Positions 33,301 through 36,300 of a stretch of DNA of 64,000 bases are shown here, piece by piece (the first letter of the stretch is position 1; the number at the start of each line of letters is the position of its first letter). The position numbers are program-made. Origin of the DNA: an uncultured Poribacteria bacterium (GTDB taxonomy: Bacteria; Poribacteria; WGA-4E; WGA-3G); assembly GCA_951813565.1 (NCBI GenBank), contig OX638351.1, positions 832,001 through 896,000 of the forward strand, given 5' to 3'.

Positions 33301-36300
33301 GTTACTTTACATCCTCTTAGTATGGACACAATACGCTAAATGCGATCTATTCCCGATAAAATTCACTTGACACATTCACAAATTTTGTGGTACACTTACA
33401 TATCCATATTGAAATGAAAACGGAATAAAAGGTTTATGGCGATATTCTATCGCGGATCAGGTATTGGCACCTATTGGCACATAAATGACCCAATAGAAAG
33501 CGGTTTTGCCGCAAGGGCACCCGGAATGACATCCACTATAACTCGGTTGATGCTTCATATTGCTCGAAGCACTGTTAACAGCCCTTTCATTTCTATCACC
33601 CGATCTTATGCAGTCGCGTGGCGATACGCGATGTTGAGTAGCGTGAGAGTTCCTACTGTGAACGGCCCGGCATACGTGCATGAAATCGAAATTCAAGAAC
33701 CTTTACCTAAAGGTTTAGAACTCTTAGATCCAGTCAAAGCAGTCGCAAAAACCTTACCTTCTCCTACAAGCATAGGACCACCCTACCAACACGATGGATT
33801 TCCCGATTTCTTGTTGGGAATTGTTGATCCAAGTAATATGGGACATTTTCTGGAACAACACTCAATGCAGCCGCCCTCAAGTGAAGGCACTCCACGGACA
33901 CCAAACCTAACAATTGAATTAGAAACACTTGTAAGGGCATTACGGGATGCTGAAATTCTTGCCCACGGCAACATCCCTCCAACCGCTGTAAAAAATCGTT
34001 TTGAGGTTTACTATTAGATTCGACTATCTTTGATAATTAATAAGGGTAAACTCATGAACAGCTACAAAGTTAAGTCTCCGTTCAATCTAACAATTAAGAC
34101 ACTTGACCTGAAAGGACGCGTGCAAGGGACTGATACTATCGAATTCTTGCGCGTTGAACTCCAGTATGAAGATGGTAATGGACCGCTTTTCCTCGCGCGG
34201 GTTCGGTACGCCTGCAACGGTGTTGAACAAGAAGACGGTTTCCCTATTGATTTAGATAAAGGGGCATTCATTTCTACAGTCTCTATCCAAAATGAAGGAT
34301 TAGAAGAAAAACTCCAGGAAATTGGTCCCGAAATTGCCAAGATTGTGCGTAAAGATTTAGCAAAACACTGTCGAGCACATGCCTAAAAACAGCAAACCAG
34401 AATGAGTTGTTTATCTCATTTTCTTTTGGATTATCCCTCATATTTACCAACAAGACAATGCCTTCTCAATTAATAACCTAAATTTTCAACAAGGAGAGAT
34501 TTATATGGCATTTTTTGAATTACGTCAATATCGAACCCAACCCGGACAACGCGACAACTGGGTCAAATACATGGAGGAAACGATTATCCCGTTCCAGATT
34601 TCCAAGGGAATGGTCGTTATCGGTAGTTTTATCGGTGAAGAAGAGGATGACCTCTATGTCTGGATCCGACGGTTTGAAAACGAGGAACAGCGTGAAAAAC
34701 TCTACGCAGCGGTTTATGAAGACGATAGATGGGTAAACGAAATCTCGGCACGCGTCGGTGAACTCATTGATAGATCAAAAATCGTTGTTACACGGATGGA
34801 ACCGACCTCACGCTCACCGCATCAATAACAGCAACGGAGATGTCAGAATGAACGCTGAAGAAAAATATCTGTTTGACCTGTGGGGATATGTGAATATAGA
34901 AGGTGTTTTAGAAGCGGAAGAACTTGCAGAATTGAACGCTCTGATTGACGCGCAAGACTACCCTGATCCTGCGGATGAGAACATCCATTCACAACGATTC
35001 GGTGGTTTCTTGAGTTGGGAAAATGAGGCTTTTCGGAAACTTCTCAACCATCCACGCATCATGCCATGCTTAGCAGAGGTTGTCGGCCCAAAATTTCGGC
35101 TTGATCATGTTTACGGTATCTTGATGAAAGAAGGCAACCCTGGTGGAACACTCCACGGTGGTGGCACGCCTTACGATCCATCACAATATTACGTCTTCCG
35201 AAATGATCGGATGTATAACGGTTTGACTGTTGTTTCGTGGGCTTTGACAGATATGCTGCCAGGGCATGGTGGTTTTTGCTGTATTCCTGGTAGCCACAAA
35301 AGCAACTATCCGTGTCCACCGCAGTTCCGACCCGTGAAAGACAACAAAACTTGTATGGCGCCTGTGCATCAGAAGGCAGGCGATGCTGTCATCTTCACGG
35401 AAGCGTTAACTCACGGTACCCTTCCGTGGACTGCTACGCACCAACGCCGCTCAATTCTGTTCAAGTATTCCCCAGGACATGCTTCATGGGGACAAGGTAG
35501 ATATGACGATGCACTCCGCGAGCTGATGACAGATGAAGACCAGAAGTTGATGCTTGAACCGCCTTATGTTGCACACCGTAAACCTGTAGTAAATTAGTGA
35601 TCTCAAAACCCAATCCAATTTGCTTTTTGGTGATAACGCGAAATCTTCATGCTGCTGATCACGATTGAAAATGAAAAAGATTAAACCTTATCTATTATTT
35701 TGGATATTTGCAAGCATAATCATAGGAATAACCTTAAGTTCTTTCTACGGCTATGAAGATTTGTTTGTCGCGCTTATAGTGAGCATAATTCTTATTGTTA
35801 ATCTAATAATTTTGCCCAAAATATGGCGGTTTGTGTTGGCAAGAGTTAGCGAGGTAGCAAAGGCTGTACGAGGGTCGGACTAATGTAATTGCGAAAATAT
35901 CCTTTTTGTCATTCTATAACTTGAGCGGTTGATTCTCTTCTGTTTTATGTTACCAATCCGCAACACTACCGTCGGTATCATAATAATACTCGCCGCCAAG
36001 TTCTTCAGGATAGGTATCAAGCATCTGTTCCGCTTCCTGCTCATTGATTTCGAATCCGAGCCCTGGTTTTGTTGGCAACTCAATGTGGCCATCTGTAACT
36101 TGCCAATCTTCGGTGAATAAACCTGCACCCAAACCGTCATCAATTTGCTCTTGGATAAGGAAATTTGGAACGACAGCATCAACATGAAGGGAGGCAGAAA
36201 AAGCAACCGGTCCAATCGCACAATGCGGTGCAATATGCATATAGTAAACCTCCGCCATATTGGCGATTTTCTTCAGTTCGGTGATACCACCAGCGTGGGA

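Follow-up and report, generated by a model that had tools for sequence, protein, structure and literature searches.

Which chemistry should be expected of a PhyH-type Fe(II)/2-oxoglutarate oxygenase that lacks the acidic residue beside its first iron-binding histidine, and on what does such an enzyme act? H-x-G and H-x-A are signatures of Fe(II)/2-oxoglutarate halogenases. The question is raised by a gene, here P0001, within a 64,000-nucleotide stretch of a poribacterial genome (the window; Table 1). PhyH oxygenases make up >1.9% of poribacterial genes, and the portions of the source that deal with them give no function except for a phnY-like case (PMC3909097). Our preferred reading is that P0001 encodes an active, probably cytoplasmic oxygenase of the HygX type, that it belongs to a subfamily of single origin, and that its substrate is catabolic and of sugar type; to this reading as a whole we assign a probability of roughly 55%.

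The start codon of P0001 is preceded at ∼10 nt by GGAG, and Met1 is invariant in 27 homologues. A scan of positions 34300-36100 returned three promoter-like sites (shuffle mean 3.6) and three terminator-like sites (shuffle mean 1.5), nothing above the shuffles. Residues 11-201 of the protein match Pfam PhyH PF05721 with an E value of 1.3e-15 (58.7 bits vs a cut-off of 22). Judged from aligned and conserved positions, the two presumed metal-binding histidines and the arginine of the family are present, and the residue at His+2, Asp or Glu in the canonical motif, is Gly105. Together with Glu185, the motif reads H-x-G plus E-x3-H, and its residues align with those of HygX, the hygromycin B orthoester synthase. 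An AlphaFold2 model built on a 137-row alignment has a pLDDT of 96.2 and a pTM of 0.93. The model predicts the double-stranded beta-helix of the family, its top Foldseek matches all being PhyH-type oxygenases, with a strand interruption at residues 185-187 between strands 180-184 and 188-192.

Table 1. Features of the oxygenase locus, in window coordinates.
Feature	Position	Strand	Remarks
NIPSNAP-domain gene, 107 aa	34505..34828	+	Pfam PF07978 E 3.2e-9; 19 nt upstream of oxygenase
HygX-type PhyH oxygenase gene (P0001)	34848..35597	+	249 aa; Fe(II)/2-oxoglutarate family
H103-G104-G105 codons	35154..35162	+	Proximal His; Gly at canonical Asp/Glu position
E185-A-L-T-H189 codons	35400..35414	+	Putative relocated acidic residue and distal His, from translation
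R200 codon	35445..35447	+	Presumed 2-oxoglutarate C5-carboxylate binder, role from family
Enolase-superfamily sugar-acid dehydratase, 381 aa	35950..37095	-	Pfam MR_MLE_C 3.2e-63; convergent with oxygenase
Sulfatase, SGSH-like C-terminus	38321..39724	+	Pfam PF00884 6.4e-46; SGSH_C 5e-20
Glycerate kinase	39924..41108	-	Pfam Gly_kinase 5.1e-153; NCBIfam TIGR00045 502.8 bits
Canonical PhyH oxygenase, 255 aa (control)	41212..41979	+	Pfam PhyH 1.8e-31
Amidohydro_2-family gene, 287 aa	42001..42864	+	Pfam PF04909 3.9e-22; directly 3' of second PhyH

HygX is the nearest characterised relative of P0001 by sequence, by two profiles and by fold. A phmmer search of the PDB with the single sequence places it first (E 1.1e-10), as does the family profile (HygX 4.7e-30, then EctD 5.6e-16). 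A profile of 18 other members of the P0001 clade gives the same order (6.6e-30 vs 4.8e-16 for EctD), and HygX is absent from the 19 PDB matches of the canonical PhyH control in the window. HygX chains also occupy Foldseek ranks 1-10 for the P0001 model (E 1.7e-18, TM 0.73-0.78, identity 21-24%), in agreement with the survey's finding that HygX is the best PDB fold, and PhyH-family proline and leucine hydroxylases are among the profile and fold matches. On these grounds P0001 very probably belongs to a subfamily defined by the HygX-type triad, and the proposal that the Gly and Ala forms are a coherent HygX-like group is borne out by the two profiles and the control. In the sections of a review that treat HygX, the enzyme has an H-X-G...E-X3-H triad with the acid relocated, reacts at a sugar C-H, and is suggested to use Lys137 to occupy the space opened by the glycine (PMC13374393). 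Position 137 of the HygX chain, if chain index equals published numbering, aligns to Val128 of P0001, which is Val in 121/121 sequences (the best 120 of 2975 homologues plus the query); judged from this alignment, the mechanism of HygX need not carry over to P0001.

The residues of the predicted iron site are strongly conserved. A homology search recovered 2975 proteins at E<=1e-3, and in the best 120 of them plus the query His103 is retained in 121/121, Gly105 in 118/121, Glu185 in 120/121, His189 in 121/121 and Arg200 in 120/121; the homologue number and the counts for His103 and Gly105 are those reported by the survey. A more diverse sample, comprising 151 representatives of 50%-identity clusters and the query, contains 91 sequences with HxG and ExxxH, and 20 more in which another non-acidic residue accompanies ExxxH. 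Asp and Glu are both present in 5 of the 151 representatives.

These data bear on the possibility that P0001 encodes a SyrB2/WelO5-type halogenase, in which the missing His+2 acid would leave the iron open to chloride or bromide and Glu185 would be no ligand. The H-x-G and H-x-A motifs are as a halogenase would have them, the family profile weakly matches SyrB2 (4.4e-7) and CytC3 (3.9e-5), and the genome also has, at another locus, a true WelO5-family gene (L010:439-1338, Pfam WelO5 6.1e-26). However, Glu185 is conserved among close homologues and in most of the diverse representatives, as expected of a ligand, and in the profiles the E values of HygX are >20 orders of magnitude below those of the halogenases. 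The matching Glu of HygX is described as the relocated acid where the review treats this enzyme (PMC13374393), and Glu185, by homology, would likewise be an iron ligand, so that a halogenase, with no protein carboxylate on its iron, is not what the family resembles. Two His, the Glu, bidentate 2-oxoglutarate and oxygen would fill the iron and leave no site for halide. We therefore consider halogenation very unlikely, as the survey had argued.

How the variant triad arose can be read from the PhyH complement of the genome. PF05721 matches 122 genes at E<=1e-3, one ORF each, one of them a 94-aa fragment, and a MAFFT L-INS-i alignment of all 122 was the basis of the motif counts. The first His is found in 121/122, the distal His in 122/122 and the Arg in 120/122. 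The residue at His+2 is Asp in 97, Gly in 11, Ala in 4, His in 4, Ser in 2, Val in 2 and Pro in 1, the position being absent in one fragment. Glu stands four residues before the distal His in 14 of the 15 Gly or Ala forms vs 4 of the 97 Asp forms (Fisher P 1.8e-13, a naive test, the genes being kin); of the 10 other forms, 5 have Glu there and 1 has Asp. The 122 genes, the 11 Gly and 4 Ala forms, and the 14/15 count of the survey are thus reproduced from an independent alignment, with the same totals for the distal His and Arg and trivial differences elsewhere (95 Asp and 1 Glu, 4/96, and a first His in 120/122 had been given). The 14 cases do not count as independent evidence, because all variant genes fall within one clade of 23 paralogues (SH-like support 0.997), and so the variant triad represents essentially one ancestral change rather than 14. 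The two characters require 5 and 7 parsimony changes on the tree vs ∼22 and ∼21 with shuffled labels.

A family so expanded might contain decaying or non-catalytic paralogues, and the variant copies could be of this kind. In one clade member (4530729-4531475) both His are replaced by Gln, and the N-terminal domain of the clade's 579-aa tandem protein is without all three ligands. Against decay, the P0001 ligand residues and Arg200 are retained across phyla at identities down to 45%, and the P0001 model is confident throughout. Among poribacterial loci the oxygenase is 83-97% identical, as is the dehydratase (86-97%), vs 54-90% for a neighbouring HEAT protein. Loss of function in P0001 is accordingly extremely unlikely.

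The subfamily is neither small nor confined to sponge symbionts. Of 61 genomes sampled from the phylum, 57 contain it, with 3-43 copies each. It is multiplied in several phyla, with up to 43 copies in a poribacterial, 32 in a Latescibacterota and 14 in a Gemmatimonadota genome. The suggestion that the triad is a speciality of sponge symbionts is not supported, since the record titles for relatives at 45-52% identity include Paenibacillus, Actinomycetes, Acidimicrobiia, Thermosynechococcaceae and Abditibacteriaceae. In cultured Paenibacillus strains a single orthologue is present (loci L089 and L090), with one copy in the L089 genome. A search of the ESM Atlas found generic PhyH-named clusters only, NCBIfam has no model of the subfamily, and a literature search found no paper describing the HygX-type subfamily.

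The genes around P0001 point to sugar catabolism. The NIPSNAP-domain gene is probably co-transcribed with the oxygenase; it lies directly upstream in 36/36 close orthologue loci, but no such gene was found in the diverged loci. Downstream, the enolase-superfamily gene scores 410.7 bits for NCBIfam NF010624, galactonate dehydratase (cut-off 311), and in the PDB it matches 3rr1 best (2.1e-86), an entry named as a putative D-galactonate dehydratase. Because it is encoded on the opposite strand, it is not co-transcribed with P0001. The sulfatase is syntenic in most poribacterial loci, the glycerate kinase is by synteny part of the conserved neighbourhood, and the canonical PhyH gene is syntenic in several relatives. 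The Amidohydro_2-family gene of the window has no NCBIfam match.

Orthologue neighbourhoods were compared in 80 of at least 600 matching stretches in species-representative genomes (36 close and 44 diverged loci). A gene of the enolase-superfamily MR_MLE type lies within 2.5 kb of the oxygenase in 26/36 close and 19/44 diverged loci, in the latter on the same strand in 19/19, counts that overstate independence as the loci are kin. The diverged cases comprise Latescibacterota (6/8), Caldilineaceae (11/13), Poribacteria (1/6) and Gemmatimonadota (1/2), and orthologues thus adjoin enolase-superfamily sugar-acid dehydratases in four phylum-level lineages. These dehydratases belong to different subfamilies, with 24% vs 36-41% identity to that of the window. 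The Caldilineaceae neighbour matches PDB 1rvk/4hcd/4mmw (E 1e-136; 'isomerase/lactonizing enzyme' in the PDB), which may be the Agrobacterium galactarate dehydratase III. The surroundings of the orthologues often include sulfatase and glycerate kinase genes as well as genes of lactonase and aldolase type. Amidohydro_2-family (PF04909) genes stand directly upstream of the oxygenase in loci L052 and L093; the L052 copy scores best for L-fucono-1,5-lactonase in NCBIfam (135 bits, under the cut-off of 400). Within 8.5 kb, locus L064 combines Amidohydro_2, SMP-30/gluconolactonase, three PhyH, MR_MLE, DHDPS-family and sulfatase genes.

An alternative is that the substrate hydroxylated by P0001 is a small nitrogen compound (an amino acid, a betaine or an ectoine-like solute, for example), and that the MR_MLE partner is a racemase, an epimerase or a hydroxyproline-type dehydratase. 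EctD is the second-best solved relative, proline and leucine hydroxylases are among the matches, some clade paralogues lie beside aminotransferases and peptidases, and the best scores of the Gemmatimonadota neighbour (L095) are for the muconate cycloisomerase family and for cis-3-hydroxy-L-proline dehydratase, both under cut-off. The dehydratase of the window, by contrast, exceeds the equivalog cut-off for galactonate dehydratase, and the best NCBIfam score of the L001, L062 and L068 neighbours is for the same family, at 291-297 bits, just below 311. Lactonase-type, DHDPS-family, sulfatase and glycerate kinase genes accompanying the oxygenase-dehydratase pair also argue against a nitrogen compound, which we regard as rather unlikely. 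For the P0001 orthologue group we lean, by a small margin over even odds, towards a sugar-derived substrate.

This assignment does not extend to the whole subfamily. In 25/44 diverged loci an MR_MLE gene is lacking within 2.5 kb, and paralogues have other neighbours, some adjoining genes unrelated to those above, so that the subfamily surely acts on several substrates. Within the present genome the link is weak: 3/23 clade genes have one of the 27 MR_MLE genes at a distance of no more than 2.5 kb (expected 2.5%, P 0.019), a frequency not different from that of the other PhyH genes (5/99, Fisher P 0.17). A sulfatase lies within 5 kb of 25/122 PhyH genes vs 8% of random points, and this is not raised for the clade (4/23 vs 21/99 for other PhyH).

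Given its closest characterised relative, P0001 could also be a natural-product tailoring enzyme, an orthoester synthase or oxidative cyclase working on a glycoside antibiotic of the symbiont. One paralogue (5366449-5367021) is found two genes 3' of an aminoglycoside 3-N-acetyltransferase-family gene (L017:4669-5403, Pfam 9.5e-39). Yet at the 18 loci examined (P0001 and 17 paralogue loci) no orthosomycin or aminoglycoside cluster of the kind expected for orthosomycin orthoester synthases (HygX, AviO1, EvdO1/O2) and no aminocyclitol, polyketide or other natural-product genes were found, the neighbours being catabolic or unrelated, and the sole glycosyltransferase-family gene lies ∼4.4 kb from the L013 paralogue. 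The copy number per genome is untypical of a tailoring enzyme, the identity to HygX is low, and two insertions of HygX are absent from P0001. Tailoring is thus distinctly improbable, and the survey's placement of these genes outside any orthosomycin cluster holds at all 18 loci. Its further proposal of sugars of the sponge matrix as substrates stands in part: the conserved neighbours indirectly support the link to sugars, but no N-terminal signal sequence is evident by eye, so that P0001 would act on imported small molecules and not on the matrix itself.

The activity, cell location and substrate class of P0001 we infer, and under the preferred reading of a catabolic HygX-type oxygenase the reaction may proceed as follows. 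Iron would be held by His103, His189 and Glu185, the last taking the place of the usual Asp at His+2, where P0001 has Gly, and Arg200 would bind 2-oxoglutarate. By analogy with the rest of the superfamily, activated O2 would yield an Fe(IV)-oxo species that abstracts hydrogen from the substrate. The subfamily would have arisen once and then multiplied, to at least 23 paralogues here and to the numbers seen in relatives, with the P0001 copy serving catabolism rather than antibiotic synthesis. Its substrate would most likely be a sugar, a sugar acid or a blocked sugar feeding the adjacent galactonate-type pathway (lactone, aldonate, 2-keto-3-deoxy acid), and hydroxylation, O-dealkylation, desulfation and C1 oxidation are candidate reactions.

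A more specific proposal, which we consider unlikely but worth stating, is that the HygX-type clade consists of sugar C1 oxidases that convert the anomeric C-H to an aldonolactone. Such an enzyme would abstract the anomeric hydrogen as HygX does, and hydroxyl rebound would then yield the lactone. Because the carbon of a lactone is at the oxidation level of an orthoester carbon, C1 oxidation would amount to HygX chemistry without the intramolecular trap. Substrates could be free, sulfated, methylated or glycosidically bound galacto-sugars or uronates, a glycoside releasing its aglycone, and the reaction would provide a 2-oxoglutarate-driven, NAD-independent entry to the adjacent lactonase/dehydratase/aldolase pathway. 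If this is correct, it would mean intracellular oxidative cleavage of glycosides closed to hydrolases, and part of the PhyH expansion in Poribacteria, which has lacked an explanation since 2014, would gain a first biochemical role.

About one-fifth of the PhyH genes of this genome form one subfamily with the relocated iron ligand of HygX, and what is new is the placement of its orthologues beside sugar-acid dehydratases across phyla. A vague PhyH 'expansion' thereby becomes a testable proposal on the processing by symbionts of sugars that carry sulfate or another block, for which the cultured Paenibacillus orthologue offers a way into experiments. For annotation, a member of this family should not be called a halogenase on the strength of H-x-G or H-x-A.

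The comparison with known systems delineates the subfamily. HygX from Streptomyces hygroscopicus (PDB 4xc9, 4xca, 4xcb, 4zpi) shares with P0001 the PhyH-type double-stranded beta-helix, the H-x-G...E-x3-H motif with local LHGG and EALxHG (EALMH in HygX), and an Arg after the distal His, but it resides in an antibiotic gene cluster, whereas P0001, one of many paralogues, has catabolic genes as neighbours. Canonical PhyH enzymes (PhyH, EctD, SnoK and the 97 H-x-D paralogues) have the Pfam family, the fold, the two His, the Arg and presumed 2-oxoglutarate dependence in common with P0001 but keep the Asp at His+2, rarely have the distal Glu, and fall outside the clade of 23. The halogenases SyrB2, CytC3, WelO5 and BesD resemble the clade in the replacement of the His+2 acid by Gly or Ala; they are distant by family profile and carry halide on iron without a replacement carboxylate, unlike the P0001 family with its conserved Glu. 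A precedent for catabolic oxidation of a sugar-ring substituent is provided by PHYHD1/FJS, which the relevant parts of the source describe as 2'-O-methyl-nucleoside demethylases, with a poribacterial family member that complemented in a growth assay; they are PhyH enzymes but, unlike the clade, have the canonical H-x-D...H triad (PMC12709175). NAD-dependent sugar and uronate 1-dehydrogenases such as Udh are unrelated to P0001 in fold and cofactor. Their pathway step, which in the part of the source that covers it forms the lactone that precedes the lactonase and enolase-superfamily dehydratase steps (PMC6353982), is the place that P0001 would take if it were a C1 oxidase.

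The oxygenase gene is an open reading frame of 249 codons. A longer version of the same frame would begin with a GTG at window position 34758; the ATG at 34848 is preferred because a GGAG lies ~10 nt 5′ of it, the preceding NIPSNAP gene ends at 34828, and M1 is invariant in 27 aligned homologues. The product belongs to the Pfam family PhyH (PF05721; E 1.3e-15, 58.7 bits against a cut-off of 22), and its translation places the motif residues at H103-G104-G105, E185-A-L-T-H189, and R200. It is probably cytoplasmic, since no N-terminal signal sequence is evident on inspection by eye and residues 3–12 form a confident helix belonging to the fold in the AlphaFold2 model. 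Most likely, the protein is active as an Fe(II)/2-oxoglutarate oxygenase, has a 2-His-1-Glu triad like that of HygX, the hygromycin B orthoester synthase of Streptomyces hygroscopicus, and helps to break down a sugar-derived compound.

Genes around the oxygenase gene, in window coordinates
Feature	Position	Strand
HEAT-repeat protein, 1300 aa	29167-33069	+
Two small inserted ORFs (193 aa, weak DUF7587 match; 118 aa, no family)	33436-34386	+
NIPSNAP	34505-34828	+
Oxygenase	34848-35597	+
Enolase-superfamily gene, convergent with oxygenase	35950-37095	-
TnpB fragments, two adjacent ORFs (127, 134 aa)	37345-38173	-
Sulfatase	38321-39724	+
Glycerate kinase	39924-41108	-
Canonical PhyH	41212-41979	+
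Amidohydro_2	42001-42864	+

The neighbouring enolase-superfamily gene (Pfam MR_MLE) clears the NCBIfam galactonate dehydratase equivalog (410.7 bits, cut-off 311), and its top PDB match is 3rr1, a putative D-galactonate dehydratase (2.1e-86). The small ORFs between the HEAT gene and NIPSNAP are a variable insert: of 36 close orthologue loci, only 2 (L020 and L021) have both, and L026 has just the second. The first of the two frames between dehydratase and sulfatase combines a Cas12f1-like TNB domain with the end of OrfB_IS605, and the pair is therefore a broken TnpB/IS605-type element inserted there; in relatives this gap spans only ~30–370 bp (52 bp in L018). A one-strand run of genes at 47193–52308 (−) encodes a protein like the N,N-dimethylformamidase beta subunit, a second sulfatase, a radical-SAM protein of 485 aa, and a DUF169 protein; adjoining a sulfatase as it does, the radical-SAM gene could encode a sulfatase-maturing enzyme.

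Across the 5.43-Mb genome, PF05721 has 122 matches (E ≤ 1e-3), one ORF apiece, including one 94-aa fragment. All were aligned (MAFFT L-INS-i) and motif residues were taken from each raw sequence. The first His is conserved in 121, the distal His in all 122, and the Arg in 120, and the residue at His+2 is D in 97, G in 11, A in 4, H in 4, S in 2, V in 2, and P in 1, with the position missing from the fragment. Glu stands four residues before the distal His in 14 of the 15 G/A forms, 4 of the 97 D forms, and 5 of the 10 others (Asp in one further), a near-exact match to the counts in the survey's finding. A naive Fisher test puts the association at P 1.8e-13, but independence does not hold among these genes. 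FastTree, applied to the 121 sequences of at least 200 aa (the fragment left out; 250 columns with ≥50% occupancy), places every variant gene with Glu or Asp at distal-His-4 in a single clade of 23 (SH-like support 0.997). Of its members, 20 lack the acid at His+2 and carry Glu or Asp at distal-His-4, one has both acids, one has reverted to the canonical form (HRD...TNLLH), and one is a 579-aa protein. The two characters require 5 and 7 parsimony changes, against ~22 and ~21 with shuffled labels. The variant pattern thus reflects essentially one ancestral relocation, since kept under constraint, and not 14 separate events.

Several members of the expansion depart from these patterns. The both-acid gene (genome positions 4548673–4549272, −; L013:5927-6703) encodes H-A-D and E-A-L-T-H, a combination also found in 5 of 151 diverse representatives and plausibly an intermediate state in ligand migration. 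Two HygX-like domains in tandem make up the 579-aa protein (2285900–2287537, −): both His and the Glu are gone from the N-terminal domain, and the C-terminal domain has H-D-G and D-G-G-C-T-H. A GH32-like gene that includes a LamG domain adjoins it. A profile of 137 relatives (A1) has 54 matches in this genome at E ≤ 1e-10, among them two clade members missed by PF05721 at E ≤ 1e-3. One is an intact HGG...EAITH form (95425–96171, −); in the other (4530729–4531475, +) Gln replaces both His, so that it probably does not use iron. PhyH genes with H-S-H as first and T-H-A-A-H as distal motif may form a three-His metal site (2433789–2434337, −; 2434687–2435238, −; L064:5806-6555; L071:5808-6557); in Latescibacterota loci a relative with this motif pair is flanked directly by the HygX-type orthologue and the dehydratase. 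A partial PhyH domain is fused to HEAT repeats in a 504-aa protein (L002:8193-9707; genome 902193–903707, +), and partial PhyH matches occur in two other long frames, of 508 and 472 aa. A WelO5-family gene (L010:439-1338; genome 4143338–4144237, −; Pfam 6.1e-26) adjoins a canonical PhyH gene and precedes, by ~4.3 kb, two clade members in tandem with H-V-V...E-S-L-x-H motifs.

Beyond this genome, 2975 proteins of a 90%-identity collection match the oxygenase at E ≤ 1e-3. Among the best 120 plus the query, H103 and H189 are each present in 121 of 121, E185 and R200 in 120, and G105 in 118. At 50% identity, matching cluster representatives number 2167 (E ≤ 1e-3), 943 (1e-10), and 190 (1e-30); the best 150 plus the query divide into HxG+ExxxH (91), other non-acid+ExxxH (20), HxD+ExxxH (5), incomplete (9), and variously deviating (26, some of which may be alignment errors). 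Two family peptides match more than 600 stretches of species-representative genomes. By record title, the best 80 are from Poribacteria (41, and one close relative that has no title), Caldilineaceae (13), Latescibacterota (8), other Chloroflexota, Gemmatimonadota, Actinomycetes, Acidimicrobiia, Ilumatobacteraceae, Thermosynechococcaceae, Abditibacteriaceae, and three Paenibacillus/Paenibacillaceae records, two titled as strains and not MAGs. The enzyme class had been proposed as one of sponge symbionts, namely Poribacteria and Chloroflexota; both phyla are indeed represented, but titles such as Paenibacillus, Actinomycetes, Acidimicrobiia, Thermosynechococcaceae, and Abditibacteriaceae mean that the family is not confined to such symbionts. 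Copy numbers in the window's phylum range from at least 3 to 43 in 57 of 61 sampled genomes (E ≤ 1e-40), lower bounds because scoring took in no more than 44 candidates per genome, the four without a match being from the most distant families; elsewhere, single genomes have 32 (Latescibacterota), 14 (Gemmatimonadota), 6 (Caldilineaceae), 1 (Paenibacillus), and 1 (a cyanobacterium). No NCBIfam model covers the subfamily; the ectoine hydroxylase model comes closest, with 15.6 bits where its cut-off is 336.5.

The neighbours of orthologues indirectly support a link to sugar acids. In 36 close loci (77–97% identity), NIPSNAP is directly 5′ of the oxygenase gene in all 36, and 26 have an MR_MLE gene no more than 2.5 kb away, on the opposite strand every time; identity among relatives is 83–97% for the oxygenase and 86–97% for the dehydratase, against 54–90% for the much faster diverging HEAT neighbour. 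In 44 diverged loci (45–70% identity), 19 have MR_MLE at this distance, each time on the oxygenase's strand: downstream in Latescibacterota (6/8), directly upstream in Caldilineaceae (11/13), and in 1/6 poribacterial and 1/2 Gemmatimonadota loci. These dehydratases represent different subfamilies (36–41% versus 24% identity to that of the window), and the Caldilineaceae type matches PDB 1rvk, 4hcd, and 4mmw, which we take to be galactarate dehydratase III, at ~1e-136. A D-2-hydroxyacid dehydrogenase-family gene directly follows the oxygenase gene in 12 of 13 Caldilineaceae loci. Lactonase-type genes also recur, with SMP-30/gluconolactonase in 5 loci and Amidohydro_2 directly 5′ of the orthologue in L052 and L093, that of L052 scoring best, under cut-off, as L-fucono-1,5-lactonase. 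Within 8.5 kb, the Latescibacterota locus L064 combines Amidohydro_2, gluconolactonase, a canonical PhyH, the orthologue, a third PhyH, MR_MLE, a DHDPS-family gene (best NCBIfam match 5-dehydro-4-deoxyglucarate dehydratase, 99.9 bits, under cut-off), and a sulfatase. These are parts of oxidative, non-phosphorylative sugar/uronate pathways, which run from lactone to acid to 2-keto-3-deoxy acid to cleavage, as outlined for uronates (PMC6353982).

This link is best supported for the window gene's own orthologue group. The related loci are kin, so that their counts overstate independence, and 25 of the 44 diverged loci are without a dehydratase. Of the 23 clade genes of this genome, 3 have one of its 27 MR_MLE genes no more than 2.5 kb away (P 0.019 against 2.5% expected), which does not differ from 5 of 99 other PhyH genes (Fisher P 0.17); a sulfatase within 5 kb is no more frequent for the clade (4/23) than for other PhyH genes (21/99; random points 8%). 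Other paralogues neighbour GFO/IDH/MocA oxidoreductases, xylose-isomerase-like TIM barrels, aldo-keto reductases, an FGE-sulfatase, ThuA, and a BNR protein, as well as aminotransferases, peptidases, and unrelated genes. The HygX-type subfamily surely has many substrates. Hydroxylation of a nitrogen compound is a serious rival for the window gene, albeit an unlikely one.

Candidate reactions are hydroxylation, O-demethylation (described for 2′-O-methyl ribose with the PhyH-family PHYHD1/FJS; PMC12709175), oxidative desulfation, and oxidation of an anomeric C-H to a lactone. The last, the boldest and in our estimate a rather improbable one, would amount to the HygX reaction, in which hydrogen is abstracted at the anomeric C1″ (PMC13374393), minus its intramolecular trap. 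It would also explain the lactonase-type genes and acid-sugar dehydratases alongside and the lack of an NAD-dependent 1-dehydrogenase from both the scanned ORFs of L064 and the core cluster of the window; oxidoreductases are found near some other loci (L052, L053, L054, and L076).

The poribacterial PhyH expansion (PMC3909097) and the HygX triad (PMC13374393) are already published. In a literature search that covered few subscription journals, we found no publication on a HygX-type clade making up a fifth of the expansion and extending over several phyla, or on its association with sugar-acid genes. The clade makes an old open question about the expansion testable.

HygX is the closest solved relative by sequence, profile, and fold. 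A single-sequence search ranks its chains 4xc9, 4xca, 4zpi, and 4xcb best (E 1.1e-10, residues 3–211), with LHGG and EALxHG matching residue for residue. Profile A1 finds HygX at 4.7e-30 and next EctD at 5.6e-16, and a separate profile of the 18 other clade members gives 6.6e-30 versus 4.8e-16 for the next; HygX is absent from the 19 PDB matches of the window's canonical PhyH, used as a control. The AlphaFold2 model on A1 (pLDDT 96.2, pTM 0.93) bears out HygX as the best PDB fold, its chains taking Foldseek ranks 1–10 (E 1.7e-18, TM 0.73–0.78, 21–24% identity), ahead of TlxI and SptF at ~1e-13. In the model, the strand is interrupted at 185–187, between strands 180–184 and 188–192, which would let Glu185 and His189 approach one metal. 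That the enzyme is a halogenase, against which the boldest reading in the survey's finding had already spoken, is very unlikely, because the conserved Glu would fill the site needed by halide and the E-value of HygX is over 20 orders of magnitude better than those of SyrB2 and CytC3 (A1 against the PDB).

The triad of HygX is H-X-G...E-X3-H with a relocated acid, and Lys137 fills the gap thereby left, according to a 2026 review (PMC13374393). Chain position 137 of HygX aligns to Val128 of the oxygenase, which is Val in 121 of 121 close homologues, with Lys in only 2 of 151 diverse ones; should chain index and published numbering coincide, the Lys assistance proposed for HygX would not be common to the two enzymes. 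The oxygenase is also more compact than HygX and has many paralogues, and no biosynthetic context surrounds it, as expected of a gene claimed to stand outside any orthosomycin cluster. On these grounds it is unlikely to be, like HygX, the orthoester synthase of an antibiotic pathway.
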